Below, piece after piece: positions 1-14,350 of a DNA stretch of 64,000 nt (position 1 is its first letter; each line of letters starts with the position of its first letter). A program made the translations under genes and the position numbers. This DNA is from Actinomycetota bacterium. GTDB lineage: Bacteria; Actinomycetota; Actinomycetes; JACCUZ01. The stretch lies in the NCBI GenBank assembly GCA_030841035.1, contig JAVEDI010000104.1, positions 9,445 through 73,444 on the forward strand. The letters run 5' to 3'. A model generated the notes under the pieces. That model had not been told where the DNA came from, searched no databases, and worked only from the letters and a program-made list of their open reading frames with translations.

Positions 1-39
1 ATTGGTTCAGTGGACAAATACCAAGGGAGGCAAGAGCTC

Positions 40-1143
40 ATGGCGCGAGGCATCAACACAGGTGGAGACGTCGTCCGCACGACGGTGGACGGCGTCGACC
101 TCGCCACCATCTGGCAGGACATGCAGGCGGCAAACGACCTGCGCAACCGAGACCGAGACAGTCTGCGGGCGATCCTGACGCATCGCACAACGGCCGTCGG
201 CGACGAGGTCCCCCAGACGTCCGTTTTGGACGATTTCGAAGATATGTCCGAGATGGGGGCTCCCCATTCGATCCGGACCGGCATCGCCACGATCCCGATG
301 GGCTTCAACTTCAAGGACCGCGACCTGGCCGCACGCTACAGCTGGAGGTTTTTGCGTGACGCGGACGCGGCTCAAGTCGAGGCCGTTCATCAAGGCGCTC
401 TCGACGCTGATGCCCGGCAACAGCTCCAGTCGGTGATGGGCGCGCTGCTCAACAACACCAACCGGACCAGCCCGGAGGGCCTCACGGTGTATCCGCTGTG
501 GAACGCCGACGGCGTTGTGCCGCCCGAGTGGAACGGGGTCACATTCCCCGGGTCTCATTCGCACTACCTCGTGAGCAGCAGCGCTACGTTCGATGGCGGC
601 GATATCCGGGATGCCTACCAGGCTGTCGCGCATCACGGCTACGGCAGCCCGGACGTGGGCGGCAAGGTCATCGTGTTCCTCAACCCGGTGCAGGCGGACG
701 CGGCTCGCGGCTTCGTCAAGGGGACGGCGGCGACGGACCCGTTTGACTACATCCCTGGTGCATCCGCCCCGGCCTACCTCACGGACCAGACCATCGTCGG
801 TGACCGGCCTCCGGCGAATGTCGGGGCCATCTCAATCTTCGGGCAGTACGGCGCGGCGCTGCTTAGCGAGAGCTCGCTCGTCCCAAACGGCTACGTCGTC
901 GCCGTTGCCACATTCGGCAGCAACGACCAGCGCAACGTGATCGCATTCCGCGAGCATCGGCGCCCGGAGTACCAAGGGCTTCGCCAGATCCCCGGCTCGT
1001 CGCCGGAGTACCCGCTTCAGGACTCGTACTACACGCGGTCCTGGGGCACCGGCGTCCGACAGCGTGGCGGCGCGGCCGTCGTCCAGGTCAAGGCGAGCGG
1101 CTCCTACGACGTGCCCGCCGCGTACCAGACGGTCATCGCGTGA
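40..1143 (+). CDS. Putative phage major capsid protein
   Basis: The ORF is open from GTG 10, and ATG 40 is preceded by AAGGGAGG (23-30). About 368 aa, with size and composition like actinophage HK97/P22-type coat proteins. This is recognition only; no search or fold prediction was done. Confidence 0.5.
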   Translation: MARGINTGGDVVRTTVDGVDLATIWQDMQAANDLRNRDRDSLRAILTHRTTAVGDEVPQTSVLDDFEDMSEMGAPHSIRTGIATIPMGFNFKDRDLAARYSWRFLRDADAAQVEAVHQGALDADARQQLQSVMGALLNNTNRTSPEGLTVYPLWNADGVVPPEWNGVTFPGSHSHYLVSSSATFDGGDIRDAYQAVAHHGYGSPDVGGKVIVFLNPVQADAARGFVKGTAATDPFDYIPGASAPAYLTDQTIVGDRPPANVGAISIFGQYGAALLSESSLVPNGYVVAVATFGSNDQRNVIAFREHRRPEYQGLRQIPGSSPEYPLQDSYYTRSWGTGVRQRGGAAVVQVKASGSYDVPAAYQTVIA

Positions 1144-1589
1144 TGGACGCCGCTCTTGAGCCCGCCATCCTTGCGATGACGGACGCCATGGTCGCCGCCT
1201 CCGGCTGGTCCGAACGGCTCTATCCGGACAACGGCTGGCTCGCAGAAGACGAACAACTCTCAATGGTCGTCCTCACCGCACTTGGCGACGGTGCCGAGCC
1301 GTTCCCGGCTGAGCGGCTCGTCGGTGGCACGCACGTCGTCGTCTACGCCACCGGGCGCGTGCTGGCGCTGGCACCGGACGTCAGCCAGGCAACGGCAGAT
1401 GCCGCCCTGCGGGCTGCCGCGCCGACACAGGGCGTCTGCGACTACTGCCCTGAGCCGTTGCTGGGGTCCGCCGTTCTACTGCCCTACCCGGCGGGCGCAA
1501 CCGTCGTTGCCGTGAGCCTCTGCGCGGCCTGCGTCGCGTTCCTGCGCTCAACCTTCCCGACCGCCCACTACGTCACCTGTGGAGGCTGA
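1140..1589 (+). CDS. Hypothetical protein (element-encoded)
   Basis: The start overlaps the capsid stop (GTGATG). Coding-like codon bias. The C-terminal half is Cys-rich (CDYC...CAAC). Confidence 0.5.
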   Translation: MMDAALEPAILAMTDAMVAASGWSERLYPDNGWLAEDEQLSMVVLTALGDGAEPFPAERLVGGTHVVVYATGRVLALAPDVSQATADAALRAAAPTQGVCDYCPEPLLGSAVLLPYPAGATVVAVSLCAACVAFLRSTFPTAHYVTCGG

Positions 1590-1591
1590 CC

Positions 1592-1801
1592 GTGGACACG
1601 CTCAACACCGAAGAAGTGCTCGCGCTCGCAACCGAGGCGCGGAGCTGGCCGACCATCGGCGCCCTGGCCGACCGCTACCGGGTCAACGGCCGAGCCATCC
1701 GCAAGGCCGTCGCTAACGGAGATCTCCAGGCGGTTCGACTCAACGTCCTGCGCATCAACCCGGCCTCGTTCGCGGCCTGGCTGGACGCCCGACAGCCCTA
1801 A
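1592..1801 (+). CDS. Excisionase-family helix-turn-helix DNA-binding protein
   Basis: 69 aa. The central segment WPTIGALADRYRVNGRAIRKAVANGDL reads as an excisionase/MerR-type HTH. It follows the previous gene after 2 nt. Confidence 0.5.
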   Translation: MDTLNTEEVLALATEARSWPTIGALADRYRVNGRAIRKAVANGDLQAVRLNVLRINPASFAAWLDARQP

Positions 1802-1856
1802 ATCGTCGGAGGGGGCGGCCTCGGGAAAGACCGCCCACTCCCCAACAACGGAGGTA

Positions 1857-2126
1857 ATGATGGCAACCCTGCAGACCCTGCTGGCCCGGTGGCAAGGCCT
1901 CGGTCTTCGCCTTGACCCACTGGCAGCCCGAAACGCCGGGGTCTACTGCGGCGACGCGAGCGGGTGGGTGTGGCTCGCCTTGCGAGAACTCGGGGACTCA
2001 GCTCCGGTCCTGGTCCTGCTAGCGCTCCTGGAGGCGCGCGGTTACCCGGACCCGGAACGCATCCTTCTGGACGCGGTCACCGACTCGTCCGGCGGATACG
2101 CCTGGTACCGGCTCGCGGTGCGGTGA
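1857..2126 (+). CDS. Hypothetical protein (element-encoded)
   Basis: 89-aa ORF, ATG after GGAGG (1849-1853), followed by a hairpin. Confidence 0.4.
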   Translation: MMATLQTLLARWQGLGLRLDPLAARNAGVYCGDASGWVWLALRELGDSAPVLVLLALLEARGYPDPERILLDAVTDSSGGYAWYRLAVR

Positions 2127-2136
2127 CCGCGCATTA

Positions 2137-2172
2137 CTCGACCCCGCAGGAGCGAGTCGCTACGGGGTCGAG
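2137..2172 (+). terminator. Hairpin, possible intrinsic terminator
   Basis: CTCGACCCCG (2137-2146) pairs with CGGGGTCGAG (2163-2172) over 10 bp. It lies 11 nt after the stop of 1857..2126. There is no U-tract. Confidence 0.3.
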
Positions 2173-2386
2173 AGGCGCTGGTAAGGCGCGGCCACGTCAA
2201 GGAGCCGAGATAAGCGTTGCACGGCCTGACCCGACCTGCAACGACGAGATCCGACCTGGCTAGACCCCTTGAAAACATTGAAGTTCTGGTCCTAGCGCCC
2301 GGCCCTGTGCAGCCCTCACAGTAGGCCTTGGCGCACTGGTAAACCGCCCTCGGTTCTTCAACCTCAAACACGTCAAAGGAACCCCC

Positions 2387-4396
2387 GTGACGCATACAAG
2401 AACAAGGGCCGACCTCCACAAGGTCGCCGAGGCCTGTCATGGCGCGGTCTGGGAGTCCGACGACCAGTGCTCGGCCCTGTGCCCCTCGCATGAAGACACG
2501 TCCCCGTCATTGCGGATCGGGGTGGGCGACGACGGGCGGGTGACCGTCTATTGCCACGCCGGATGCGACTACGGGGACATTCGCGCGGCACTCGTGAGGC
2601 GAGGCATCCGCACGGAAACCCTCAGACCAGCGGCGGCGCAGACGCGCAGGAAGCAGAAACGGTCGGTACCAAAAAAGAAGCGACGACGCCAGCCGAAAGC
2701 CAAGCCTCTGCCGTATGACGACGACGTCGCCAAGTGGCACACGCACTTGAGGCGCAGTGAGCAACTCGGACCAGCGCGCAACTATCTCCGGACGCTCCGC
2801 GGCCTCAGTACAAGCACCATCCTCCGCTACGAGATTGGTCACCGATACGGGCGGTACGTCATCCCCGTTCGCGATGCCGAAGGGCTCCTCGTCAATGTGC
2901 GCAAGTACGACCCTGAGGCGACCAGCGACAAGATGACGAGCTGGCCGGGCCACGGTGGTTCAGTGCTATATCCGTTGGAGGCGTTGACGGAGGCCGATCT
3001 GAGCGAGGCGGTCCTGTTGTGCGAAGGCGAGTGGGACGCGCTCCTGGCCGGGCAGTACGGTCTCGTCGCCGTCACAGGGACTGGGGGCGCGAGCGCACCG
3101 CCGTCCGACCTGGACGCGTTGCGTGACCGGCGCGTGTACATCGCCTACGACTGTGACGATGCCGGGAGATCCGGAGCGCACAAGGTTGCCGCCCTGCTCA
3201 ACGAGGTCGCCAAGGAAGTGTTCGTGGTGGACCTCGGGCTCGGGCTCGGCGAGGACATCACCGACTGGTTCGTTACCCACGAGAAGACCGCCGACGACCT
3301 CCTGGCTCTTATGGCCGCTGCCGAGCCGTGGATTGAGGAAGACGAGGATGAGGGTGAGCTGTTCGTCACGCTGGCGGACCTTGAGGAGACGCGACTTCGT
3401 TGGCTGTGGGCTGGCCGCATCCCTGCCGGAAAGTTGACGATGCTGGAGGGCGACCCAGGCCTCGGCAAGAGCATGCTCTGGGCCAAGCTCGTCGCCCACA
3501 TCACGACGGGTGAACCACTTCCGGGTGACGGTGAAGTACACGACCCGGCTGACGTGCTGGTGGTCTGTGCTGAGGACGACCTGCACGACACCATCGCGCC
3601 TCGACTTCGGGCGGCCGGAGCCGACCTGCGGCGCGTGCACTCCGTGACCCTGGCGCGAGACGACAAAGGCCACCTCATTCCGCTGAGCATCCCCGAGGAC
3701 CTGCCTCGGCTCCGCAAGGCCATCGTTACGGCGCGAGCCTCGCTGATCGTCTTTGACCCGGTGATCGCGTATCTGAGCGAAACCATCAACAGCGGAAACG
3801 ACGCGAGCGTCCGGCGCGCCTTGACACCGCTCGCCGAGATCGCGCAGACCACGGGCGCGGCCGTCGTGATGATCCGGCACTTGAACAAGCAGGGAGATCT
3901 CAAGGCTCTCTATCGCGGCGGAGGCTCAATTGCGTTCATCGGAGCTGCCCGCAGCGGGCTCGTCGTTGACCGGCACCCGGAGCAAGAAGGGGTCGTCGTG
4001 CTGGCGCAGACGAAGTCCAATCTCGCGCGCGGCGTGCCGGCCCTCGCCTACTCGGTGGACTCGTGGGCCGAGGACCCAACTATCCCGGTGGTCACCTGGG
4101 GCGACGAACTAAACATCACGGCCGAGCAGTTGCTGCACAAGCCGGACGGGCGCACGGACGCACCGACGCGCGATGCCGCGGTGACCTTCCTGCGGGAACT
4201 GCTCGCAGACGGCCCTGTCGCGGCCAAGGAAGTCCAGAAGGCCGCCAGGGAAGCGGGTATCGCGTGGCGAACCGTGGAGCGGGCCAAGGAGCGGGCTGTG
4301 GCACGGACGAGGGCAGCGCACTCGGACACTGGTGTGATCAAGGGCTGGGAGTGGTTCATTCCGCGCCTCCACATCGTCCGCGAGGACGACGAGTGA
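2387..4396 (+). CDS. Bifunctional DNA primase / replicative helicase (zinc-finger + Toprim + RepA/AAA_25-like ATPase)
   Basis: Cys/His motif CPSHEDTSPSL...YCHAGC. Toprim acidic motifs LLCEGEWDAL and YDCDDAG. Walker A GDPGLGKS. GTG start after AAAGGA. Confidence 0.8.
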   Translation: MTHTRTRADLHKVAEACHGAVWESDDQCSALCPSHEDTSPSLRIGVGDDGRVTVYCHAGCDYGDIRAALVRRGIRTETLRPAAAQTRRKQKRSVPKKKRRRQPKAKPLPYDDDVAKWHTHLRRSEQLGPARNYLRTLRGLSTSTILRYEIGHRYGRYVIPVRDAEGLLVNVRKYDPEATSDKMTSWPGHGGSVLYPLEALTEADLSEAVLLCEGEWDALLAGQYGLVAVTGTGGASAPPSDLDALRDRRVYIAYDCDDAGRSGAHKVAALLNEVAKEVFVVDLGLGLGEDITDWFVTHEKTADDLLALMAAAEPWIEEDEDEGELFVTLADLEETRLRWLWAGRIPAGKLTMLEGDPGLGKSMLWAKLVAHITTGEPLPGDGEVHDPADVLVVCAEDDLHDTIAPRLRAAGADLRRVHSVTLARDDKGHLIPLSIPEDLPRLRKAIVTARASLIVFDPVIAYLSETINSGNDASVRRALTPLAEIAQTTGAAVVMIRHLNKQGDLKALYRGGGSIAFIGAARSGLVVDRHPEQEGVVVLAQTKSNLARGVPALAYSVDSWAEDPTIPVVTWGDELNITAEQLLHKPDGRTDAPTRDAAVTFLRELLADGPVAAKEVQKAAREAGIAWRTVERAKERAVARTRAAHSDTGVIKGWEWFIPRLHIVREDDE

Positions 4397-4407
4397 ACGC
4401 GGCGGAC

Positions 4408-4429
4408 CCGAGTTCTGGCCCGAACTCGG
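4408..4429 (+). terminator. Hairpin after the primase gene
   Basis: CCGAGTTC (4408-4415) pairs with GAACTCGG (4422-4429) around a 6-nt loop, 12 nt after the stop. Confidence 0.35.
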
Positions 4430-4607
4430 TGCGGAACTCCCAGCGTGCCTACCTACCTACTGGCGGTCTTGGGCGGTGTGGTGTGCAACCTCTGTGCCAG
4501 ACCGCCAAAGACCGCCCAGGCTCGCATGGGCAGCCTGGGAGTCCGGTCACAAGTTCAGTGACCGAGTTCCCTTCACATGCCTCGTCAACCAATCTCAAGG
4601 GAGTGTC

Positions 4608-5132
4608 ATGAGCAAGGGAAACCGAACTCGACGTAAGGCGGCTGGTCTGTTGCCCACCGACCAGAAGTGTCATGCCCGGAAGAAGGACGGCACCGCATGC
4701 AAGCGTCCACCTATCAAAGGCGGAACTGTGTGCCCCAGCCACGGCGGTTCAGCCCCACAGGTCCGCGCCAAGGCCGCTGAGCGGCTGCGGGAGGGCATCA
4801 TGCCGATGCTCGCCCGGCTGTGGCAGATCGCCCACGACGAGACCAAGTCGGACGCCGTGCAGTTGGCTGCTGTGCGGGACTGGCTCGACCGCGCCGGGGT
4901 CAAGGAGGCCATCGAGCTGGATGTTCGAGTGCTCCCCTGGGAGGGCCTCATCGACGGCATCGTGAGCGACGTCGACGACCGGCAGCTGTCGAGGGTGGCC
5001 CGCGTCATCAGCGGCGAGGTCGTGGACAACGGCGAGGCTGGCGAACTGCCTGACCTCACCTCCCCCACGCCGCAGGCGCAGCCGCCCATCCCGAGCCGGC
5101 GACGACGAGGGTCATCCCTAGCGCGCCGCTAG
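4608..5132 (+). CDS. Hypothetical DNA-binding protein, small-terminase-like
   Basis: ATG 4608 follows AAGGGAG. The basic N-terminus has a Cys/His cluster (CHARKKDGTACKRPPIKGGTVCPSHGGSAPQ), a pattern I associate with small packaging/DNA-binding proteins of actinophages and plasmids. Function unverified. Confidence 0.45.
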   Translation: MSKGNRTRRKAAGLLPTDQKCHARKKDGTACKRPPIKGGTVCPSHGGSAPQVRAKAAERLREGIMPMLARLWQIAHDETKSDAVQLAAVRDWLDRAGVKEAIELDVRVLPWEGLIDGIVSDVDDRQLSRVARVISGEVVDNGEAGELPDLTSPTPQAQPPIPSRRRRGSSLARR

Positions 5133-5247
5133 CGAAGCCGATACGCCGGTGTCGGCCTCTACCTGCACGAATGAACTTCGGCCTCGAACTTCTACATGCT
5201 GCTCAACCCCAAGCGGCTCAGAGCACCGCTGCAACCAAGGAGGCAGC

Positions 5248-5748
5248 ATGACCCGCACCACGCAACCCGCGCCGGTAGACGCCGACCAGGCCGACGCAGA
5301 CGCCGCCCAGGGCCCAACCGCCGACCACAGCCCTGCCAGCCCGTCTACGTCGGCCCTGGCGGCTGCTGTGGCCGACGGCAGCGTCGCCCTGTACCGGGTG
5401 CGGGTTAGCGGCACCCTGCGCAGGCTCACGTACCTCGCGGAAGGCACCGAGGCCCGCGAGGTCGCCAACTGGTACGCCGAGCGGTTGGACGAAGGCGCGA
5501 CCGTCAAGGACGTCGCCGCCGAGGCTGGCGTCCGGCCGCTGGCCGTGCGCCGGTCCGTTTGGGCTCTTGAACTTGCGGAGGCCATTGACGACGGCGACCT
5601 CGACGACCTCTGGGACGACTGCGACCCCGACGAGACGCGCCAGTTCATCATCCAGGTCTCCGACCACGACTACCCGTACGGCGAGACACCCCTCACGGAC
5701 CCCGCCAACGCGGGCGGACACGTCGTGGTCAACGGGGACCAGTCGTGA
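5248..5748 (+). CDS. Hypothetical acidic protein (element-encoded)
   Basis: ATG 5248 follows AAGGAGG. 166 aa with an acidic C-terminal half. Confidence 0.5.
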   Translation: MTRTTQPAPVDADQADADAAQGPTADHSPASPSTSALAAAVADGSVALYRVRVSGTLRRLTYLAEGTEAREVANWYAERLDEGATVKDVAAEAGVRPLAVRRSVWALELAEAIDDGDLDDLWDDCDPDETRQFIIQVSDHDYPYGETPLTDPANAGGHVVVNGDQS

Positions 5749-5753
5749 ACGGC

Positions 5754-5963
5754 CTACATGTCATCCATCAGCTTGAGCAACTTCTCGAGGGGGATGCGCT
5801 TCCCGTACTTTTCCGTGGTCTTCCCGCGCATCCAGACCACGGTTGCCTTGCCGATTCGCAGATTGCCAACGTGCTTGTCCTGAGAGTCATGGATGGCAAG
5901 CCGGATGCCGTTGTTGCCGAGGTTGATGCCGCTGACCTGATCCATCCTCATTTTGACGTTCAT
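5754..5963 (-). CDS. Small hypothetical protein (69 aa, Lys/Gly/Asn-rich)
   Basis: ATG is preceded by GGGAGG at 6-nt spacing. The local GC is the lowest in the element. It is the only minus-strand gene inside the plus-strand block and is divergent from the serine recombinase. Confidence 0.5.
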   Translation of the reverse strand: MNVKMRMDQVSGINLGNNGIRLAIHDSQDKHVGNLRIGKATVVWMRGKTTEKYGKRIPLEKLLKLMDDM

Positions 5964-6025
5964 GTGCTACCTCCCGTTGATGTTGATCAGAAGGTACAGA
6001 TCTTCGGGCCTGAAGGGGGCCGAAC

Positions 6026-6718
6026 GTGAACGTCATCGGCTACGTGCGAGTCAGCACTGACGACCAGGCCGCGTCCGGGCTGGGCCTCGACGCACAGCGC
6101 GCGACCATCGCCGGCGAGGCAGCCAAGCGCGGCTGGAGCGTGACGTGGGTGGAGGACGCCGGGCACAGCGCCAAGACCTTGAAGCGGCCAGGCGTGACCA
6201 CCGCCCTCAACCTGCTCGCCAAGGGCGAGGCGCAGGTGCTCGTCGTCGCCAAGTTGGACCGGCTCAGCCGGTCGGTGCAGGACTTCGCCGCGACGATGGA
6301 CACCGCGAGGAAACAGGGCTGGGCGCTTGTCGCTCTCGACCTGGGCGTGGACACGACCACTCCGGCAGGCGAGCTCGTCGCCAACGTGATGGCCGCCGTT
6401 GCGCAGTGGGAGCGCCGCGTCATCAGTGACCGTACGAAGGACGCTCTGGCGGCAGCCCAAGCGAGAGGAACCCGGCTCGGTCGCCCACGCGCCATCGACG
6501 CCGGGCTACTGCTCCGCATCGTGGGGCTGCGCTATGACGCCGGTCTCTCCCTACGCCAGATCGCCACCGTCCTCAATGACGAGGGCATGCCCACCGTGCG
6601 CGGTGGTCGCTGCTGGCACCCCGCCACGATCCGCGGCCTGCTCCACAGCCACCTGCTCGACCAGCCGGCCGAGGCCGAGACGGACCAATCCACCACGAAG
6701 AAATGCAGGGCAGTCTGA
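6026..6718 (+). CDS. Serine recombinase (resolvase/invertase family)
   Basis: N-terminal catalytic motif YVRVSTDDQ, a resolvase core and a C-terminal HTH (LSLRQIATVLNDEG). GTG start after GAAGGGGG. Confidence 0.9.
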   Translation: MNVIGYVRVSTDDQAASGLGLDAQRATIAGEAAKRGWSVTWVEDAGHSAKTLKRPGVTTALNLLAKGEAQVLVVAKLDRLSRSVQDFAATMDTARKQGWALVALDLGVDTTTPAGELVANVMAAVAQWERRVISDRTKDALAAAQARGTRLGRPRAIDAGLLLRIVGLRYDAGLSLRQIATVLNDEGMPTVRGGRCWHPATIRGLLHSHLLDQPAEAETDQSTTKKCRAV

Positions 6719-7881
6719 TGGCTGACAAGAAGCGCGAGCCTGTCAGGGGCTACGCGGGCATGTACAAGATCAGACGGACCAAGGGTGTCGTCTACGAGAT
6801 TCGGTACCGCGCCCGGGACGACCGAGGGGAGTGGCAGCAGTTCTCAGCGACATTCCCCACGAAGGAGGAAGCCGCTGCTGAAATGGACGAGCGCAGAGCC
6901 GCCCGCCGAAAGGGCACACACATCACACCGGCGCGGGGTCGGCGCACGTTCGGTGACGTGACCGCGCAATGGCTCGACAGCAAGGACCGCAAGGCCCGCA
7001 CGATGAAGGGCTATCAGCACATCCTCGACAGTTGGCTCGGATCGTGGCGGCACCGTCAGGTGTCCAGCATCACCTACGACGACTGTGCTTCCGTGCTCGT
7101 CGCGATGCGAACCGCCGGTCGGCACGGTCAGACGGTTCGCAACGTCTACAACGTCATGCGCGGCGTGCTCGACCAGGCGGTCGAGGCAGGGTGCATCGCG
7201 GTTAACCCGGCCACACCGCTGCGCAAGCGACTGCCGCGGAGTGGAGAACGCGACGTGTGCTTCCTAACAGCCGACCAGGTGGCGACACTGTCGGCGTCCC
7301 TCCCCGCTCCCTACGACCTCGTCGTCACGTTCGCCGCCTGGTCTGGGCTGCGAGCTGGTGAGATCGCGGGTATGCGAGTGCGCAACGTTGACCCGATGCG
7401 CCGTCGGGTCCGGGTCGAGGAGACCGTGGTCGCGCTGCGCGGTGGCTTGCAGGCCGACACTCCGAAGACACCTAAGAGCCGCAGGGCTGTGCCGCTGCCG
7501 GCGTCGCTTGCACATCTGCTGGCCGACCACATCGCCGCCCGTGGCCTCGGCCCCAACGACTACATGTTCGGCAGCCCTGATGGCAGCCCCCTCAACCACG
7601 GCCGCTTCTACCAACGCATATTCAAGCCTGCGGCCAACGGGATTGGCTTGCCGGATTTGAGGTTCCACGATCTGCGGCACACGTACGCATCGCTGATGCG
7701 GCCGCACCTTGACATGTTCGAGCTGAGTCGGCGGATGGGACACAGCACTTACCGGCTGACAGCGGACACCTACTCGCACTTGTACGAGACGGATGACCCC
7801 ACATTGGACGAGAGGCTCGACGCGGCCTTTCAGGCAGCTACGACTCCTAGCCCTGTTGTTGCGAGGCTAGTCATCGCCTAG
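6718..7881 (+). CDS. Tyrosine recombinase / phage integrase
   Basis: Catalytic signature LRFHDLRHTYASL ... HSTYRLTADTYSHLY. ATG 6718 shares one base with the recombinase stop (TGATG). Alternative ATG at 6703. Confidence 0.9.
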   Translation: MADKKREPVRGYAGMYKIRRTKGVVYEIRYRARDDRGEWQQFSATFPTKEEAAAEMDERRAARRKGTHITPARGRRTFGDVTAQWLDSKDRKARTMKGYQHILDSWLGSWRHRQVSSITYDDCASVLVAMRTAGRHGQTVRNVYNVMRGVLDQAVEAGCIAVNPATPLRKRLPRSGERDVCFLTADQVATLSASLPAPYDLVVTFAAWSGLRAGEIAGMRVRNVDPMRRRVRVEETVVALRGGLQADTPKTPKSRRAVPLPASLAHLLADHIAARGLGPNDYMFGSPDGSPLNHGRFYQRIFKPAANGIGLPDLRFHDLRHTYASLMRPHLDMFELSRRMGHSTYRLTADTYSHLYETDDPTLDERLDAAFQAATTPSPVVARLVIA

Positions 7882-7987
7882 TCACCGCGAGTTCCCATAT
7901 GGAATCCATGAGCTGACCGCAGCCAGGAGCACCGACAGAGCCGGTCTCCCGCGCTAGGTGACCAGCCCGCGCCTTGCGGGGCGGCGG

Positions 7988-8395
7988 TCAGTTGTTGGGA
8001 ATGACTGAGGGTGCTTGCAAGAGCGCGGAAATTTCGCGGTGAAGACTGCCGATAAGGACGTGTCGCTCTTCGATCTCATCGCGCAACTCGTCGACAGCGC
8101 GCTGCAGGCGCACAACCTGGTCGAGCGTGCTTGAACGATCTACATCCTGATGTTCCGCGGCCGTGCGTGGAGTCGCCGCCCTCGCAGACGCCGTTGGTCG
8201 AGGTGAACGCTTGCTGACGGCAGCCTCCCGCAGGACGTCCTCGGCGAGGACCTCCCGCAATGGTTTTTGGCCAATTGACGTCAGGCGTGTCTGCACGCGG
8301 GGTGGGTCTTTGAGTGCCCACTTGCGAATGGCCTCGACACCCAAGCCAGCCCGAGCGGAGGCTTCCTGGAGGGTCCACCACCCGTCGTCCGGCAC
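7988..8395 (-). CDS. HTH DNA-binding protein (excisionase/MerR-type) with C-terminal coiled coil
   Basis: GTG start after GAGG. N-terminus WWTLQEASARAGLGVEAIRKWA is HTH-like and the C-terminus is heptad-like. Convergent with int. Confidence 0.6.
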   Translation of the reverse strand: MPDDGWWTLQEASARAGLGVEAIRKWALKDPPRVQTRLTSIGQKPLREVLAEDVLREAAVSKRSPRPTASARAATPRTAAEHQDVDRSSTLDQVVRLQRAVDELRDEIEERHVLIGSLHREISALLQAPSVIPNN

Positions 8396-8409
8396 AGTCC
8401 TGCCTCACG

Positions 8410-8447
8410 CATTGTTGGGCAAAGTTGGTGTAATCTGGCCAACAATG
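8410..8447. promoter_or_regulatory. Candidate operator: 9-bp inverted repeat in a divergent intergenic region
   Basis: CATTGTTGG (8410-8418) and CCAACAATG (8439-8447) are perfect reverse complements with a 20-nt spacer. They sit between the starts of 7988..8395(-) and 8445..8903(+). Confidence 0.45.
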
Positions 8448-8903
8448 GGAAACGTTGGCCAACCCGAGAATACGCCGACTATGGCTCAGGAGGCCATAGT
8501 CGGCATGCTGCTGGCGTTGTCCAGGGAGCTTGAGCTCCCAGCTCGTCCTTGGCCACTAGTGGCAGCCTGCCAAACGTTGGCCAACGAGTTGCCACCGGAG
8601 TCGCCCTTCGTTGGTCACTTGGAGCGAGCCACTAGCACTCTGACCGGCGCGCAGGACGTCGAAGCATGGCTTCTCTCGCTTGCCGAGCGTGGGTCACTCC
8701 GGGCAGAGGGGCGCGCAAACGAGGCGCGCTGGATCGCGAGTCCGGACTGGTTGGCCAACTGGCAGGTCCCCGCCGCTGCGATCCAGGAGACAGAAGTCGG
8801 GGCTTGGGCTGCGGCCTCTCAGGCCCTAATGAGGTCCTTATCAATTTGGCGGAAGACTGTGTCGGCCGTGGCGAACGGGTCGGATCCGTCCGCCGAGCAC
8901 TGA
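8445..8903 (+). CDS. Hypothetical helical protein (uncertain gene)
   Basis: ATG 8445 is in frame within ORF 8163..8903; the part upstream of 8445 is antisense to the HTH gene. Its 3' end overlaps the convergent kinase gene by 85 nt, so one of the two ends may be wrong. Confidence 0.35.
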   Translation: MGNVGQPENTPTMAQEAIVGMLLALSRELELPARPWPLVAACQTLANELPPESPFVGHLERATSTLTGAQDVEAWLLSLAERGSLRAEGRANEARWIASPDWLANWQVPAAAIQETEVGAWAAASQALMRSLSIWRKTVSAVANGSDPSAEH

Positions 8904-9898
8904 CGCATGCGACGCCACCCCGACGCGTAGCGTCGCTCAGCCTCAACCCGCCACCCTCTGCCCCTGAGGGGGCGCGCGACGACCCGATAGGCGTTGCCGC
9001 CCCACTCCCCGTCCCACGCGGTTGTTTGGCCGTCAGTCGTCGGCCACTGCCAGTCAACGAATTCTGCTCGAGTAAGGGCTCTGATCATCTCGCTGGCAGC
9101 GTCGTAACGACCGTTTGCACCAGGCCGAGTCGACTTGCGCACGATCCGACGAAGCGAGTCCGGCACGTGCGGCTGGAACACGCTGTGTCGTGGCAGCACC
9201 GCCGAGCGGCCGCTCGCGAGACGTTCTGAGAGACCCTCCATGGTGTAGGTCTCATACGGGAACGGCCCCGAGAGCATCTCGGCCAGAGACATGCCCATGG
9301 AGTAGATGTCGGACTGAACCGTGTACAGCTGACCGATGAATGTCTCTGGTGGCGTCCAGAACTGTGGACTCAGCAATGGTGGGGCGGCTTCGCCGTCCAT
9401 GCGCATGGCTTCCCCGAGGTCGCCGACCTTGGCGACGGTTCCGTCCGACGTGAGAAAGAGGTTCGATGGCTTGAGGTCGCGGTGAAGCACTTTGTGAACA
9501 TCATGCAGGTGCGCGACGCCCCTCAGGCTGCGCAATGCGATGTCGCGGGCCTCGCCTGAACTGAATCGTCGTCCATTGACCATCGCGTCGAGGACGCTGC
9601 CCTGCTCGTAGTAAGGCATCATCATCTGAATCACAGCCAGCGTGCGGTCGGTGCCGGCGACCTCCGCGACGTCATAGATGTCCGCCACGTTGTCGTGGTC
9701 GATCTCTCGCAAGAAGGTGGCTTCCGTTGCGGCGAGTGTGTCTTCACGCCCGAGCAGACTGACTCTCTTGCCGACCTGCAGGGCCTGCGTGTAGATGTTT
9801 CTGTAGAGCCGGACCTCGCAGCTGCCGTAGTGCAGGGTCTTGAGCACCCCGTAGGGCAGCGTGAGGGTTCCTTCTGCGACGAGAACCTGTTTCGGCAT
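8819..9898 (-). CDS. Eukaryotic-like Ser/Thr protein kinase, cytoplasmic, with a Trp/Arg-rich C-terminal extension
   Basis: Catalytic loop HRDLKPSNLF, VGDLGEA (DFG equivalent) and TPPE (APE equivalent). No TM segment. ATG 9898 lies 4 nt after the stop of the upstream gene. Confidence 0.8.
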   Translation of the reverse strand: MPKQVLVAEGTLTLPYGVLKTLHYGSCEVRLYRNIYTQALQVGKRVSLLGREDTLAATEATFLREIDHDNVADIYDVAEVAGTDRTLAVIQMMMPYYEQGSVLDAMVNGRRFSSGEARDIALRSLRGVAHLHDVHKVLHRDLKPSNLFLTSDGTVAKVGDLGEAMRMDGEAAPPLLSPQFWTPPETFIGQLYTVQSDIYSMGMSLAEMLSGPFPYETYTMEGLSERLASGRSAVLPRHSVFQPHVPDSLRRIVRKSTRPGANGRYDAASEMIRALTRAEFVDWQWPTTDGQTTAWDGEWGGNAYRVVARPLRGRGWRVEAERRYASGWRRMRQCSADGSDPFATADTVFRQIDKDLIRA

Positions 9899-9902
9899 CC
9901 CT

Positions 9903-10472
9903 CTAGCCAATCTCGCGCGCAGTGACGAGCGCACTGGCAAACGCCGGAGCCCGGGTATCCCACTTGGGAGTTGGGTCGATCCCAAGTTCTTTGGCGACGA
10001 TGGGACGGAGTTCCTTGGAGGCAGGGGTCACTGCAAAGGTCTTCTTCACCATGTCGTGCGTCACTCGCACGACATCGGTCGACGTGCGTTGAGCCGCAAG
10101 CAACACGACCGCTTCCAGTTGCCCCCGTCGCCGCGCGTCGCTCGGGCTCATTGCTTGCTTGGAGGTACCAGCGTTCAACAGCGCGACGACTCTGGGCTTC
10201 AGCCTCACGAAAAGCGCCTGGAGGCTCTCCTCTAGCTCGGAGAGCGCTCGCGGTTCACCCAATTTGTGATCTTCGAGCGCGAGGCGATCAGCCCGGTCGT
10301 CGACGGGCTCGCCGCCTGTAGAGACCAGCCCAAACCAAACGACGCCCGCCGCCAGGTGGACGCCGAGGATCGGCGCGTCGTCTTTCGCCATGGCGATGAG
10401 TATGACTAGCGGTGACCGTTCTTGACTGGGGTTGTCAAAAGAGGCGCGCTCGGTGGGCCACACCTGGGCCAC
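9903..10472 (-). CDS. Hypothetical protein, first gene of the kinase operon
   Basis: 189-aa ORF (GTG 10472; alternative ATG 10391). The alternating beta/alpha pattern (ILGVHLA, VVWFGLV, ..VVALLNA, ..LEAVVLLAA) reads to me as an RNase H-like fold. Inference only. Confidence 0.5.
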   Translation of the reverse strand: MAQVWPTERASFDNPSQERSPLVILIAMAKDDAPILGVHLAAGVVWFGLVSTGGEPVDDRADRLALEDHKLGEPRALSELEESLQALFVRLKPRVVALLNAGTSKQAMSPSDARRRGQLEAVVLLAAQRTSTDVVRVTHDMVKKTFAVTPASKELRPIVAKELGIDPTPKWDTRAPAFASALVTAREIG

Positions 10473-10562
10473 AGAGCCACCCGCACCAGGAGCCTCCAGG
10501 ACCGTCCAAGCCAGCCGGGCGCAGGTAACGTGACCTGCGCGTTTGCGCGCAATCCCGAGGTA

Positions 10563-10652
10563 GTTGGGCGATGCATAGTGGCCTAGTGCGGCGGTCTTGA
10601 AAACCGCTATGAGGGGTGACTCTCATCGTGGGTTCGAATCCCACGCCCTCCG
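10563..10652 (+). tRNA. tRNA-Ser(UGA)-derived sequence with a defective acceptor stem (probable att remnant / pseudo-tRNA)
   Basis: Canonical D-arm (GCA TAGTGGCCTAG TGC), anticodon arm GCGGT-CTTGAAA-ACCGC (anticodon TGA), long variable arm and T-arm GTGGG-TTCGAAT-CCCAC. The 3' acceptor GCCCTCC needs GGAGGGC, but the 5' side reads GTTGGGC (5/7 pairs) with a 3-nt rather than 2-nt linker. Confidence 0.6.
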
Positions 10653-10743
10653 CCCGGCAGCACGCGGACACTGTCCTGCGGCTGCGCTCACGTGCGTACG
10701 CCGGAGACCGGTTCGCCCGGCTGCCCCCCGCTAGGCTGCGGAA

Positions 10744-11697
10744 ATGTCGCTGATCGTCACCCGCGGGCTGACCAAGAGGTTCGGTCGCGTGACGGCGCTT
10801 TCGGACCTCACCCTGGACATCCCACCCGGCGTGGTCGGCCTGGTCGGTGCCAACGGCGCCGGCAAGTCGACGCTGATCAAGATCCTGCTGGGCCTCTCGC
10901 AGGCCACCACGGGCACCGCCGAGGTCCTCGGCCTCGACGTCACGACGAACGGCGCGAAGATCCGCGAGGTCGTGGGCTACATGCCCGAGCACGACTGCCT
11001 GCCGCCGGACGTGTCGGCGACCGAGCTGGTGGTGCACATGGCGCGCATGTCGGGGCTCCCCACGACGGCGGCACGCGAGCGGGCCGCCGACACCCTGCGC
11101 CACGTCGGTCTCTATGAGGAGCGCTACCGGCCGATCAGCGGCTACTCCACCGGCATGCGGCAGCGGGTCAAGCTGGCGCAGGCACTGGTCCACGACCCGC
11201 GGCTGGTGATGCTCGACGAGCCGACCAACGGGCTCGACCCTGCCGGCCGCGACGACATGCTGGGGCTGATCCGGCGCATCGGCACCGTGTTCGGCATCTC
11301 GGTGCTCGTCACCTCCCATCTCATGGGTGAGCTCGAGCGGGTCTGCGACCACGTCGTCGTCATCGACGGCGGCACGCTCCTGCGATCGTCCTCGACGGCC
11401 GACGTGACGGCGGTGACCCAGCTGCTGCTGCTCGAGGTCGACGACGCGGTCGAGCAGGTCGCCGCCCGACTACGCGAGCTCGGCGTCGACGTACACCCGT
11501 CGGGCACGGCACTCGAGCTCGTGCTGCGCGGCGACGAGACGTACGACGCCGTGCGCGACGTGGTCGCCGAGCTGGGCGTGGGCCTGGTGCGGCTGGAGCG
11601 ACGCCGCCACCACATGCTCGACATCTTCCGACCCGACGGCGGCACACGCGTCGCGGCTGTGTCCGGCACCGGAGCGGGGGAGGTGCGCGGCGCATGA
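10744..11697 (+). CDS. ABC transporter ATP-binding protein
   Basis: Walker A GANGAGKST, signature YSTGMRQR, Walker B LVMLDEP. Confidence 0.9.
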   Translation: MSLIVTRGLTKRFGRVTALSDLTLDIPPGVVGLVGANGAGKSTLIKILLGLSQATTGTAEVLGLDVTTNGAKIREVVGYMPEHDCLPPDVSATELVVHMARMSGLPTTAARERAADTLRHVGLYEERYRPISGYSTGMRQRVKLAQALVHDPRLVMLDEPTNGLDPAGRDDMLGLIRRIGTVFGISVLVTSHLMGELERVCDHVVVIDGGTLLRSSSTADVTAVTQLLLLEVDDAVEQVAARLRELGVDVHPSGTALELVLRGDETYDAVRDVVAELGVGLVRLERRRHHMLDIFRPDGGTRVAAVSGTGAGEVRGA

Positions 11698-12572
11698 GCG
11701 AGACCGGCGTCATCCACGACATCGGCTACCGTCACTACGACGGCCCCCGACTGGGCTTGCGGTACATCACTCGCTCGCTGTTCGTGTCGAGCCTCAAAGG
11801 GGCCTACGGCTTCGGTCGCTCGGCGCGCTCCAAGGTCATGCCGCTGCTGCTGCTGGGCGTCATCACCCTGCCGGCGTTCGTCATCGCGGCGATCGTGACC
11901 ATCGGCAGCCTCGACACCCTGCCGCTGCAGTACACGCAGTACGCCGCCCGGCTGCAGCTGCTGATCGCCATCTTCGTCGCCGGGCAGGCACCGCAGATGG
12001 TGTCGCGCGACCTGCGCTTCGGTGTCGTCGCCCTGTACTTCTCCCGGCCACTGACCCGGCAGTCCTACGTGCAGGCCAAGTACGCCGCCATGGCCGCGGC
12101 CCTGTTCGTGCTGGTGACGATCCCGTTGCTGGTGCTCTACGTCGGTGCCCTGCTCGCGAAGCTCCCGGTCAGGCAGCAGACCAGTGACCTGGCCTACGGG
12201 CTGGTCGGTGCCGCGCTGCTCGCGCTGGTGCTGGCCGGGATCGGCCTGGTGATCGCGGCCTTCACACCGCGCCGCGGTCTCGGCGTCGCAGCCGTCATCG
12301 CGGTGCTGCTCGTGGCGACCGGGGTGGCTGCGACGTTGCAGGGCGTCGCTCGAGACCAGGGCAACGACACGATCGCCGGTTACGCCGGGCTGATCTCGCC
12401 GTTCACCCTCGTCGACGGCGTGCAGGTGTGGGCGTTCGGCTCGGACCCGGCCTCCCTGGCGGGGCCGCCCGGTACGACCGGTGGGCTGGTCTGTCTCGCC
12501 GTGACGTTGGCTGTCATCGCCGGCACGTACGGCCTGCTGCTGCTGCGCTACCGCAGGGTGTCGGTGTCGTGA
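11694..12572 (+). CDS. ABC-2 type transporter permease
   Basis: Multiple hydrophobic helices. The start overlaps the upstream ATPase stop (ATGA). Confidence 0.7.
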   Translation: MSETGVIHDIGYRHYDGPRLGLRYITRSLFVSSLKGAYGFGRSARSKVMPLLLLGVITLPAFVIAAIVTIGSLDTLPLQYTQYAARLQLLIAIFVAGQAPQMVSRDLRFGVVALYFSRPLTRQSYVQAKYAAMAAALFVLVTIPLLVLYVGALLAKLPVRQQTSDLAYGLVGAALLALVLAGIGLVIAAFTPRRGLGVAAVIAVLLVATGVAATLQGVARDQGNDTIAGYAGLISPFTLVDGVQVWAFGSDPASLAGPPGTTGGLVCLAVTLAVIAGTYGLLLLRYRRVSVS

Positions 12573-13543
12573 GCGTCCTGCGACTGGAGTCCGTCTCCCG
12601 CTGGTACGGCAACGTCGTCGCCGTCAACGACGTCACCATGACGATCGGTCCGGGCATCACCGGGCTGCTCGGTCCCAACGGTGCCGGCAAGTCGACCCTC
12701 ATCCACATGATGGGGGGCTTCCTGGCGCCGTCGTCAGGCAGCGTGACCCTCGACGGTGAGCGGGTGTGGCACAACGAGTCGATCTATCGCCAGGTCGGGC
12801 TGGTGCCCGAGCGCGAGGCGATGTACGACGTCGTCAGCGGCTGGTCCTTCACGCTGGCCAACGCCCGGCTGCACCAGCTGCCCGACCCCGAGGCCGCCGC
12901 ACGCCGCGCCCTCGAGGTCGTCGAGATGACCGACGCCGCCGACCGCGACATCTCGACGTACAGCAAGGGGATGAAGCAGCGGGTCAAGATGGCGTCCGCG
13001 CTCGTGCACGACCCGTCGGTGCTGCTGCTGGACGAGCCGTTCAACGGCATGGATCCCCGCCAGCGGCTGCACCTCATGGAGCTGTTGCGCAGCATGGGCG
13101 AGCAGGGCCGCACCGTGCTGTTCAGCTCTCACATCCTCGAGGAGGTCGAGCAGGTCGCCGGCACCATCGAGGTCATGGTGGCCGGCCGGCACGCTGCGTC
13201 CGGCGACTTCCGCGAGATACGGCGGCTGATGACCGAGCGGCCGCACCTCTACACGGTGCAGTCCAGCGACGACCGCGCCCTCGCCGCGCTGGTCATCGCC
13301 GACGGGTGCGCATCGGCGGTCGAGCTGGTGGCCGCCGACGCCGGCGTCAGCAGCGCGGCCGCGCGGCCGGGCCACGCGACGGGTGAGGGTGAGGTGGGGT
13401 CGCTGCGGGTGCAGGCGACCGACTACGGCAGGTTCGCGCACGTGCTGCCACGGCTGGCACGCGAGGGTGACATCCGGCTGTTCCAGGTGAGCCCCGCTGA
13501 CGAGTCGCTGGAGAGCGTGTTCGGCTACCTGGTGAACCGATGA
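12569..13543 (+). CDS. ABC transporter ATP-binding protein
   Basis: GTG 12569 overlaps the upstream stop (GTGA). Walker A GPNGAGKST, signature YSKGMKQR, Walker B LLLLDEP. Confidence 0.9.
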   Translation: MSVLRLESVSRWYGNVVAVNDVTMTIGPGITGLLGPNGAGKSTLIHMMGGFLAPSSGSVTLDGERVWHNESIYRQVGLVPEREAMYDVVSGWSFTLANARLHQLPDPEAAARRALEVVEMTDAADRDISTYSKGMKQRVKMASALVHDPSVLLLDEPFNGMDPRQRLHLMELLRSMGEQGRTVLFSSHILEEVEQVAGTIEVMVAGRHAASGDFREIRRLMTERPHLYTVQSSDDRALAALVIADGCASAVELVAADAGVSSAAARPGHATGEGEVGSLRVQATDYGRFAHVLPRLAREGDIRLFQVSPADESLESVFGYLVNR

Positions 13544-14268: not shown

Positions 14269-14350
14269 CCGGCCCGCCTCCGCGCACCGGAGCGCTTGTG
14301 CGGCGGGCGCGCAGCGGTCAGGCTGACCCCGCGGTCCTGAAGGAGGCGTC

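Follow-up and report, generated by a model that had tools for sequence, protein, structure and literature searches.

The closest known systems to the locus described here are the "integrase + capsid" candidate PICIs of Mycobacterium, which were described bioinformatically as regions combining an integrase with a major capsid gene (Abad et al., 2023; PMC10654092). SatelliteFinder also calls phiRv1/phiRv2-like elements PICI (PMC10085698). Among actinobacteria, MulchRoom, MiniFlayer and Ando are the known satellites. The satellite P4 has a genome of about 11.6-11.8 kb, integrates into a tRNA by means of a tyrosine integrase, encodes its own primase-helicase and has a much larger helper.

The DNA analyzed here (the window, 64,000 nucleotides) begins inside an integrated element of 11,791 bp, which comprises window positions 1-10611 and 1,218 nt further left. 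The element is compositionally distinct from its surroundings: the GC content was ~0.66 at positions 1-10000 and ~0.71 at 11001-20000, and GC3 was 0.72-0.90 in the element genes and 0.90-0.95 in the flanking genes. All of its ORFs are intact, and the catalytic motifs are kept. Because it has its own capsid and small-terminase-like genes but no other virion genes, the element is most likely a phage satellite, and we consider it probable that it is PICI-like and helper-dependent, itself providing the capsid protein and the specificity of packaging. The dependence on a helper, including for packaging, is suggested by the gene content and by the comparison with related elements, which form a conserved, little-studied satellite family spread across actinobacteria. 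The features are summarized in Table 1. An earlier note on this DNA had listed a capsid-like gene, an excisionase-type HTH, a Cys/His small-terminase-like protein, a serine recombinase, a tyrosine integrase and opposite-strand cargo, all of which were borne out at or close to the positions it had given. So was the zinc-finger/Toprim/AAA primase-helicase that it named, with matches to Toprim and AAA.

Table 1. Features of the element, with positions in the window.
Feature	Position	Strand	Evidence or description
Left-hand 1,218 nt	outside window		attL, excisionase-family HTH gene, gene for 114-aa product
Major capsid protein (MCP), 367 aa, Patience-like HK97-fold family	40..1143	+	phrog_3990 major head protein, E=2e-104
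Gene D, 148 aa	1140..1589	+	N-terminal helical bundle, C-terminal CxxC...CxxC zinc ribbon
Gene E, 69-aa HTH_17-like DNA-binding protein, Xis/AlpA-type candidate	1592..1801	+	HTH_17 E=3e-4, under Pfam cut-off
Gene F, conserved 88-aa protein	1857..2126	+	orthologues in L003, L007, L102
Primase-helicase, Toprim + AAA_25/RepA-like ATPase	2387..4396	+	AAA_25 E=4e-34, Toprim_2 E=4e-6
Gene H, TerS-like, 175 aa	4605..5132	+	N-terminal HGGxSTG zinc ribbon, helical core, C-terminal tail
Gene I, conserved 166-aa protein, HTH-looking core, satellite-specific	5248..5748	+	39-70% identity in L002, L003, L007, L102
69-aa Lys-rich ORF	5754..5963	-	inside 54.5% GC dip
Small serine recombinase, resolvase/invertase type, 230 aa	6026..6718	+	Resolvase E=1.5e-39
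Tyrosine integrase, 392 aa	6703..7881	+	Phage_integrase E=1e-17; phrog_1 E=1e-63
Possible 135-aa HTH/coiled-coil ORF, variable region, gene call uncertain	7988..8395	-	ORF list
Cargo Ser/Thr protein kinase, PD-T4-6/MADS-6 defence kinase-like	8819..9898	-	Pkinase E=1e-28
Cargo protein, 162-189 aa, in operon with kinase	9903..10472	-	sole match RuvC E=0.07, not significant
Tandem TGGGCCACAC repeats, candidate arm-type integrase sites	10454..10474	+	identical tandem pair at L001:340-360
attR, hybrid pseudo-tRNA-Ser(UGA)	10563..10654	+	ARAGORN (tga); element 5' piece GTTGGGCGAT + 39-nt core + bacterial 3' half

The left end was found on a JGI metagenome contig (L001) that is 100% identical to window positions 1-11143 and adds 1,411 nt on the left. 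On this contig, an intact tRNA-Ser(UGA) (L001:184-273) flanks the element, and a distance of 11,791 bp separates the left copy of an 81-nt direct repeat with a 39-nt exact core from its tRNA-like counterpart in the window. A relative (L099; 99.43% identity across 15.2 kb) has an empty attB, and its tRNA there equals the attL 5' part joined to the attR 3' part. Given the repeat with the intact tRNA, and the empty site in a 99.4%-identical genome, the element is therefore whole, has exact boundaries and was mobile in the recent past. The leftward extension and the search for an empty site had both been proposed in the earlier note as checks, and both turned out as it had envisaged. The part of the element that it could not see amounts to only 1,218 nt beyond the window edge, and the element is not an ordinary prophage because its left flank consists of the intact tRNA and the repeat, at a total length of 11,791 bp.

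We showed that the tyrosine integrase recombined inside the 39-nt core (10573-10611 in attR), which extends from the D arm as far as the anticodon arm of tRNA-Ser(UGA). The tRNA-Ser-like sequence previously noticed at the right end is present, but it is the attR pseudo-tRNA and no functional gene copy. Two acceptor-stem mismatches can be read from its sequence, it scores only as tRNA-Sec-like in Rfam, with mispaired acceptor positions, and its 3' half is identical to that of the empty-site tRNA. The functional hybrid tRNA lies at attL and the pseudo-tRNA at attR because the element supplies its own tRNA 3' half, the variable and T arms of which carry compensatory changes. The TGGGCCACAC pair on the metagenome contig lies immediately inward of attL. 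The locus contains five matches in all, where 1.3 would be expected by chance, and the two tandem pairs account for four of them, suggesting that they are integrase-binding sites. Metagenome scans revealed neither an attP junction nor a circular form nor DNA inside capsids, in a collection from which the known attR sequence was also absent. For the contigs of 11.5-11.7 kb with tRNA pieces at their ends, breaks in the assembly at the att repeats may be explanation enough.

Judged by sequence comparison, the capsid-like gene does encode an MCP of HK97 type, belonging to the Patience/Adjutor family, which answers the question of its fold raised in the earlier note. Using tblastn, we found ~43% identity to the annotated MCPs of 161 actinophages, among them phages of Gordonia, Mycobacterium, Microbacterium and Micrococcus, and the family profile matched the solved capsid proteins of Patience (8GIU, E=3e-113) and Adjutor (8SAJ, E=3e-111) (PMC11965321). 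The exact MCP protein is also encoded on the metagenome contig. The start of gene D overlaps the MCP stop by 4 nt, and the gene lies directly 3' of the MCP gene in five relatives as well (L002, L003, L004, L102 and L103). Its homologues formed 94 clusters (50% identity) among 1.84 billion proteins, and none occurred in 50,697 phage genomes. The AF2 model (pLDDT 83, pTM 0.75) gave no significant fold match, and the coupling to the MCP gene, the sole basis for assigning a role, points to a capsid-associated function.

In Pfam and PHROG profile searches, none of the element ORFs matched a family of portal, TerL, protease, tail, lysis or FtsK/Tra proteins, in agreement with the earlier reading, and no unassigned ORF within the delimited element is large enough to conceal a portal or TerL. 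As a positive control for this absence, we used 80 IMG/VR phage loci that carry the MCP family of the element. Queries with the portal, TerL, protease, decoration and major-tail proteins of phages Kurnik and NovaSharks found homologues in nearly all of these 80 loci, and in 0/19 satellite-context loci. In a neighbour-joining tree, all satellite-context MCPs fell into one clade and all 80 phage-context MCPs into the other. Matching synteny was detected in Micromonospora endolithica, Micromonospora sp. HK10, Nocardioides humi, Terrabacter sp. Root181 and metagenome contigs. The eight elements measured were 10,472-11,934 bp long and were inserted in tRNA-Ser, Asn, Arg, Lys and Met, another tRNA (L103) and the 5' end of the fpg gene. 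Within the family, MCP, D and the TerS-like gene form the best-conserved core.

Gene H, whose true start is probably 4605, scored 29.6 bits against NF041373 HGG_STG (cut-off 29). Its family profile matched the small terminases of PaP3 (E=1e-5) and NV1 (E=7e-5), which were also the top Foldseek matches (prob 0.91, E about 0.6), and Pfam Terminase_2 was detected in 2 of 50 homologues. By blastp, it matched (E=4e-9) an ORF of a phage sharing the MCP family; this ORF matches phrog_10899 TerS (E=5e-14) and lies ~700 nt upstream of TerL. Gene H therefore appears to be TerS-like, at a moderate level (E between 1e-5 and 4e-9) that applies to the helical core only. Gene I had no Pfam, PHROG or NCBIfam match and no homologue in the 50,697 phage genomes. 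Gene E shows 40-54% identity across the family, and its orthologues in L004, L102 and L103 gave weak HTH_17 matches; gene F had no Pfam or PHROG match. No repressor or induction switch was recognizable in the present copy.

The primase-helicase, for which the gene caller set the start at 2510, matched the phrog_239 DNA primase/helicase (E=1e-32), and its translation contains the Toprim E/DxD motif and the Walker A motif GDPGLGKS; in the primase-helicases of relatives, Prim-Pol replaces Toprim. The Lys-rich ORF in the GC dip is not conserved in relatives; it represents an accessory gene or else an AT-rich spot resembling an ori. The serine recombinase has its catalytic Ser within VRVSTDDQ and adjoins the integrase in all family members, even those with a large serine integrase. 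The tyrosine integrase gene overlaps it by 16 nt and encodes the R...HxxR...Y motifs.

Between the integrase and attR lies a cargo slot, the contents of which differ among family members: HEPN_Swt1/DUF5343, SLFN_AlbA_2, N6_N4 methyltransferase, DUF4145 and PD-T4-6-like kinase were found. The present kinase matched mad6 (E=3e-33) and PD-T4-6 (E=7e-29) in PADLOC, and phrog_2361 (E=1.5e-33). The ORF at 7988..8395 had no significant family match; the JGI caller instead placed a plus-strand ORF at 8481-8903. Since every family member has defence-like cargo genes, and satellite MCP and TerS homologues could disturb helper assembly, the element might be a domesticated, satellite-derived defence island that has ceased to spread in capsids, its MCP and TerS mainly poisoning the assembly or packaging of Patience-type phages alongside the kinase. 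We consider this unlikely. Near-identical genomes differ in whether they carry the element, and the tRNA 3' half in attP looks foreign, both of which indicate that the element moved horizontally not long ago; the sizes span a narrow range, as expected under a limit set by packaging; and known satellites can combine interference with transfer.

The integrase, xis-like genes, RepA-like primase-helicase and multimer-resolving resolvase are also plasmid-like, and pSAM2-type AICEs likewise integrate in tRNA. An integrative plasmid (AICE-like or mobilizable), moving by conjugation or another capsid-independent route with the MCP as a passenger or in another role, is nevertheless quite improbable: no FtsK/TraB-like or relaxase family was matched, a search of 72,556 plasmid records returned no homologue except one 27% match, and MCP, D and the TerS-like gene are the most conserved core. 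A decayed ordinary prophage that retained capsid, replication and integration genes by chance would explain the phage homologues of the MCP and TerS-like genes and the lack of most virion genes, but it is largely refuted, and very improbable, given the intact att sites and ORFs with their catalytic motifs, the empty site in a 99.4%-identical genome, the recurrence of one gene set, in the same order and within 10.5-11.9 kb, at different targets across several genera, the separate MCP clade and the absence of genes D and I from phages.

As a helper-dependent satellite, the element would stay dormant until the cell is infected by a helper siphophage whose head module is of the Patience type. It would then be excised by the excisionase-family HTH proteins and the integrase, and replicated by its primase-helicase, with the small serine recombinase probably resolving multimers. 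The TerS-like protein, which would share its core and C-terminal tail with phage TerS and differ in its N-terminal zinc-ribbon DNA-binding domain, may recruit the helper large terminase onto satellite DNA. The MCP, possibly together with zinc-ribbon protein D, would form, on the helper portal and scaffold, capsids of a size that matches a genome of 11-12 kb, and helper connectors and tails would complete the particle. The integrase-attR slot would hold exchangeable anti-phage cargo, here the PD-T4-6-like kinase. We know of no experimental precedent for a satellite building its own capsid with an MCP but without a portal, protease or scaffold.

The phage-satellite reading of the earlier note is thus supported, whereas its likening to capsid-forming PICIs (cfPICIs) and P4 does not extend to membership. 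The element resembles P4 in genome size, tRNA integration by a tyrosine integrase and its own primase-helicase. It is not P4-like by membership, since no PHROG or Pfam match corresponds to Sid, Psu, delta or epsilon and the primase type differs (Toprim + AAA_25, compared with the alpha-type protein of P4); it also has an MCP, which P4 lacks. With cfPICIs and the Streptomyces satellite phages MulchRoom, MiniFlayer and Ando, it shares its own MCP and, under the reading proposed here, the use of helper tails. However, both kinds encode everything needed for head formation and packaging: cfPICIs have portal, protease, connectors, TerS, TerL and HNH, and the Streptomyces satellites have TerS, TerL, portal, MCP, scaffolding protein and adaptor but no replication genes; the present element has only MCP and the TerS-like gene, plus its own primase-helicase, and with portal, protease, TerL and connectors missing it is no cfPICI. 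It resembles PICIs/SaPIs (PMC10085698; PMC10690885) in its size (~10-15 kb), integrase, AlpA/Xis-like HTH, pri-rep module, defence cargo and, as proposed here, an own TerS redirecting the helper TerL and helper-supplied virion parts. Classical PICIs, in contrast, lack an MCP and redirect capsid size through Cpm, Rcm or Ppi/Rpp-type factors; their integrase gene is first, whereas here it is the last operon gene, an extra serine recombinase is present and no divergent repressor pair is visible. The Mycobacterium candidate PICIs, too, are integrated elements of small size from actinobacteria that encode an integrase and an MCP of their own. They often lie in tRNA genes, with cargo adjoining the integration functions, and some have helicase or replication genes and terminase genes. 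An element of Mycolicibacterium mageritense (L106) has a Patience-like MCP, a PrimPol-AAA_25 gene, a small resolvase and an integrase, all common to the present family. The Mycobacterium candidates, none of which has been experimentally validated, are, going by their published descriptions, defined by integrase and MCP only, whereas the present family is distinguished by a fixed 11-gene order, a Patience-family MCP, the family-specific genes D and I, an HGGxSTG zinc-ribbon TerS, an obligatory small resolvase, and hosts in Micromonospora, Nocardioides, Terrabacter and other non-mycobacterial genera.

The exact major capsid protein (MCP) of the element at the left end of the window was also encoded by a 13.3-kb JGI metagenome contig (L001). 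Positions 1-11143 of the window were identical (100%) to positions 1412-12554 of this contig, and therefore 1,411 nt were gained on the left. This left stretch holds an intact tRNA-Ser(tga), a 64-aa excisionase-family HTH gene, and a 114-aa gene. The intact tRNA-Ser(UGA) and the matching direct repeat that the earlier note had expected to the left were thus both present: the left tRNA and window positions 10573-10653 form a direct repeat of 81 nt with 89% identity, and the spacing of the repeat gives an element length of 11,791 bp from attL to attR. The first 39 nt of the repeat are identical and span the D arm to the anticodon arm. The right-hand copy starts with GTTGGGC, not GGAGGGC, and therefore has two broken acceptor pairs; its fit in Rfam was only tRNA-Sec-like, with mispaired acceptor positions. 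The element accordingly does end at a tRNA-Ser-derived att, in which the right copy is a pseudo-tRNA (attR).

An empty tRNA-Ser site in a related genome, also anticipated in the note, was found in contig L099 (289.7 kb, sister metagenome), which was reached via a neighbouring gene product and is 99.43% identical to window 10573-25742. In L099, an XdhC-family gene and an ABC-transporter gene are 362 nt apart with a single tRNA-Ser(tga) between them. This tRNA consists of the 5' part of attL, the 39-nt core, and the 3' half of attR; therefore, the element is whole and has both ends defined, strand exchange fell within the 39-nt core, and the element brings its own tRNA 3' half. The element's 3' half (L001:193-273) and the host allele (L099:6223-6303) differ at 9 positions, and those in the variable and T arms compensate one another; attL is therefore a functional hybrid tRNA, and attR is a pseudo-tRNA. 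The 3' half looks foreign, which hints that the previous host belonged to another lineage, with its own tRNA-Ser allele. Tandem TGGGCCACAC pairs are located just inside both ends (L001:340-360 and window 10454-10474), and four of the five TGGGCCACAC matches of the locus sit in these two end pairs (1.3 expected); the pairs are candidate arm-type integrase sites. The predicted attP junction of the excised circle had no match in IMG/VR or the JGI metagenome contigs, and a shorter pattern matching the known attR had none there either, so the relevant contigs are absent from the collection and the attP result is uninformative. The locus is an integrated, recently mobile element and is evidently active, with both occupied and empty sites seen. 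The GC content was ∼0.66 in window 1-10000 vs. ∼0.71 in 11001-20000, and GC3 was 0.72-0.90 in the element genes vs. 0.90-0.95 in the flanking genes.

Elsewhere in the window, a patch of 62-65% GC (41300-43700) lies directly downstream of a tRNA-Arg(acg) (41216-41293). It holds only an orphan 509-aa ORF (41567-43096, minus strand) with no Pfam or NCBIfam match, and no integrase was found in it; the patch is possibly what is left of a further insertion targeted to a tRNA. An 815-aa protein with two Big_3_5 Ig-like matches in Pfam (45151-47598, minus strand), which adjoins a Crp-family regulator (44268-45095), is ordinary chromosomal content with no relation to the element.

Features of the element (window positions unless L001 is named) and lengths and integration sites of the element and its relatives
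Feature	Position	Length	Remarks
tRNA-Ser(tga), intact	L001:184-273		perfect acceptor stem; 51.9 bits, Rfam tRNA model
MCP	40-1143		PHROG 3990 "major head protein", E=2e-104
Protein D	1140-1589		start overlaps MCP stop codon; directly after MCP gene in every relative
Primase-helicase	2387-4396		Toprim + AAA_25
Protein H	4605-5132		HGGxSTG zinc ribbon, NF041373
Protein I	5248-5748		kept within satellite family; absent from phages
Small serine recombinase	6026-6718
Tyrosine integrase	6703-7881
Ser/Thr kinase	8819-9898		minus strand
ORF beside kinase		162-189 aa	minus strand
tRNA-Ser(tga)-like	10563-10654		ARAGORN
Element, window / L001		11,791 bp	tRNA-Ser
Element, L003		11,934 bp	tRNA-Asn
Element, L102		about 11,739 bp	tRNA-Asn
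Element, L103		about 11,492 bp	a tRNA
Element, L007		11,340 bp	tRNA-Arg
Element, L002		11,252 bp	5' end of fpg gene
Element, L004		10,935 bp	tRNA-Met
Element, L011		10,472 bp	tRNA-Lys

The gene list of the earlier note (capsid, HTH, primase-helicase, small-terminase-like protein, serine recombinase, integrase, opposite-strand cargo, and tRNA-Ser-like sequence) was recovered in full. The excisionase-family HTH matched TIGR01764 with 33.1 bits (cut-off, 28.8) and phrog_66 (E=2e-9), and no match to Pfam Phage_AlpA was found in the element. The kinase resembles the defence kinases PD-T4-6 (E=7e-29) and MADS-6 (E=3e-33). Between protein I and the resolvase, a 69-aa Lys-rich ORF (5754-5963, minus strand), which has no family match and is absent from the relatives, is surrounded by a sharp GC dip (54.5% at 5800-5999); an accessory gene and an AT-rich, origin-like spot are both conceivable. 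Promoter and terminator scans showed no enrichment.

The absence of tail, lysis, portal, large-terminase, and FtsK/Tra genes seen at first reading was confirmed by Pfam and PHROG scans, in which no ORF matched a portal, protease, scaffold, TerL, connector, tail, lysis, or FtsK/Tra family. As a sensitivity control, tblastn was run with five proteins from the phages Kurnik and NovaSharks (portal, TerL, protease, decoration, and major tail). These queries found homologues in nearly all of the 80 IMG/VR phage loci with the same MCP family, matched none of the 19 satellite-context loci, and gave nothing in the element. All ORFs of the 11.8 kb were accounted for, and no unassigned ORF longer than about 170 aa was left in the core.

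Of the likeness to capsid-forming PICI-type and P4-type satellites claimed earlier, a partial agreement with the classical PICI was left. By the criteria of Fillol-Salom 2018 and the SatelliteFinder PICI model, the element has an integrase and about 10-15 kb between att sites, and an AlpA/excisionase-type regulator with a pri-rep module (TIGR01764, phrog_66, Toprim + AAA_25). For the packaging-redirection gene (TerS, Ppi, or Rpp), protein H is a candidate, with moderate sequence support for its TerS-like identity. It departs from the classical PICI in carrying a structural gene and in gene order: the PICI order is int, regulators, alpA, pri-rep, and packaging, and here the MCP gene is near the start and the integrase is the last core gene. 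Of the cfPICI set (MCP, protease, portal, head-tail connectors, TerS, TerL, and HNH), the MCP and the TerS-like protein alone are present. Of the P4-like set (Sid, Psu, delta, epsilon, AlpA, alpha-type primase, and integrase), only the integrase was recovered when every ORF was searched with Pfam and PHROG. An AICE, which besides int, xis, and rep has an FtsK/TraB-like translocase, does not fit, as no FtsK_SpoIIIE or Tra was found.

The MCP shares ∼43% identity with MCPs annotated in 161 actinophages, whose genomes span 55-71 kb, and no sequence in IMG/VR was >44% identical to it. A profile of 34 close MCP relatives matched the solved capsids of Patience (8GIU, E=3e-113) and Adjutor (8SAJ, E=3e-111), and full-length homology covering profile positions 3-361 places the protein in the Patience-type capsid family. 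Because of these matches, the question raised in the note of whether 40-1143 has a capsid fold was settled without a model: it belongs to an HK97-fold family. Patience and Adjutor are mycobacteriophages whose T=7 HK97-fold capsids are "supersized", contain 64.5-70.5 kb, and include the gp4 accessory protein and a decoration protein (PMC11965321). Protein D was represented by 94 clusters (50% identity) in a set of 1.84 billion proteins and had no homologue in 50,697 phage genomes. Its AF2 model (pLDDT 83, confident) gave no significant Foldseek match in PDB or BFVD, and its zinc ribbon alone resembles ZZ or DUF7455 modules. Protein D showed no similarity to the product of the gene behind the MCP gene in NovaSharks or Kurnik.

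Several lines of sequence evidence give moderate support for protein H as TerS-like. Its helical core matched small terminases by profile (PaP3, E=1e-5; NV1, E=7e-5), and the same two small terminases were the top Foldseek matches of its AF2 model (pLDDT 78; Foldseek prob 0.91, at an E-value of only about 0.6). Pfam Terminase_2 was found in 2 of 50 H homologues. The IMG/VR phage contig L040 encodes an MCP of this family, and an ORF ∼700 nt upstream of its TerL gene matched PHROG 10899, "terminase small subunit" (E=5e-14); this ORF lacks the zinc ribbon, and its alignment with H (E=4e-9) covers the C-terminal 77 residues of the latter. A phage-like core and tail with a different DNA-binding head would be expected of the TerS of a satellite that redirects a helper's terminase. 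Microbacterium phage Margaery, which has an H homologue, was considered as a helper type and rejected: its MCP belongs to another family and its H homologue is not beside the terminase.

The relatives share the order HTH, (small ORF), MCP, D, HTH, small ORF, primase-helicase (AAA_25 with Toprim or Prim-Pol), H, I, resolvase, tyrosine integrase, and variable cargo. This order was found in Micromonospora endolithica, Micromonospora sp. HK10, Nocardioides humi, Terrabacter sp. Root181, and several metagenome contigs; a scan of genome contigs with one peptide pattern gave 12 loci, a count that is not a measure of family prevalence. In the tRNA cases with a readable repeat (L003, L007, and L011), att identity begins at the anticodon stem, which fits an anticodon-loop crossover. 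Two contigs of 11.5-11.7 kb with tRNA-fragment ends (L102 and L103) were rejected as evidence of circular forms, with end overlaps of only 14 and 9 nt, because assembly breaks at att repeats explain the ends equally well. The cargo is unlike in each member (HEPN_Swt1/DUF5343, SLFN_AlbA_2/DUF7668, N6_N4 methyltransferase, DUF4145, HTH_31/DUF397, and kinase). On one contig of a Nocardioides sp. MAG (JAOPXC010000399.1, 25.7 kb; L009/L010), two satellite-type MCP genes lie 12.2 kb apart, each with a resolvase, and therefore tandem elements of the family are indicated.

Sister types (L104, L105, and L106) keep an MCP of the same clade, PrimPol/AAA_25, and a small resolvase. L104 and L105 (contigs of about 11.7-12 kb) have an extra large serine recombinase and a Dam-like methyltransferase, and L106, from Mycolicibacterium mageritense, has a different layout: its tyrosine integrase is 528 aa long, and its MCP gene is oriented divergently. 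No relative was found in the plasmid collection. The sole IMG/VR locus without phage head or tail markers (IMGVR_UViG_2802429070_000003, about 1100-10100) codes for an MCP, an H-like protein, a resolvase, and a tyrosine integrase, and is a satellite of the same family inside a region that IMG/VR calls viral. In a midpoint-rooted NJ tree of 101 MCPs, built without bootstrap support, all 18 satellite-context MCPs and two of unknown context fell in one clade and all 80 phage-context MCPs in the other.

The earlier reading of a candidate phage satellite was thus borne out as to an integrated mobile element; from the gene content, the small spread in element size, the MCPs falling in a clade of their own, and a TerS-like protein akin to that of phages, we infer a satellite life cycle. 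Packaging of one genome in helper-sized heads is unlikely because the element is 11-12 kb and the likely helpers are 55-71 kb. We speculate that either small capsids are formed from the satellite MCP or multimers are packaged, and the universally conserved small resolvase might fit multimer resolution. If small capsids are formed from the satellite MCP, an anciently separated satellite lineage of Patience-type MCP would build on the helper portal and scaffold, and the result would be a small shell that fits a genome of about 11-12 kb, with protein D, the coupled zinc-ribbon protein, perhaps taking part. A chimeric TerS, phage-like in its core and tail and with a zinc-ribbon DNA reader specific to the satellite, would redirect packaging. 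With somewhat less than even confidence, we propose that an own capsid protein combined with a chimeric TerS is a distinct hijacking strategy, differing from P4 Sid, SaPI CpmB, PLE TcaP, and the full head module of cfPICIs.

Phage satellites have an influence on gene flow and on defence against phages, and in Actinomycetota, a phylum with antibiotic producers, soil bacteria, and mycobacteria among its members, they are almost uncharacterised. Micromonospora endolithica, Nocardioides humi, and Terrabacter sp. Root181 are culturable carriers of the family, and capsid-size remodelling by MCP substitution is directly testable because the Patience and Adjutor capsid structures are solved. Actinobacterial anti-phage genes could readily be sought in the variable slot that separates the integrase from attR.

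Among known systems, the Streptomyces satellite phages MulchRoom, MiniFlayer, and Ando have full head and packaging modules (TerS, TerL, portal, MCP, and scaffold) and no replication genes; the element is opposite in content, with replication genes present and portal and TerL absent. It agrees with P4 in integrase and genome size only, its primase-helicase being of the Toprim + AAA_25 type. In Mycobacterium, the PICI calls of SatelliteFinder correspond to phiRv1 and phiRv2 (PMC10085698), and "candidate PICIs" are regions with an integrase and an MCP that are known by bioinformatics alone (PMC10654092). With its integration machinery and MCP in one integrated region, the family fits that loose definition, and we rate it as a well-defined family of probable actinobacterial satellites, which combine MCP, TerS-like, pri-rep, resolvase, and integrase genes; it is cleanly delimited, widespread, and experimentally tractable.
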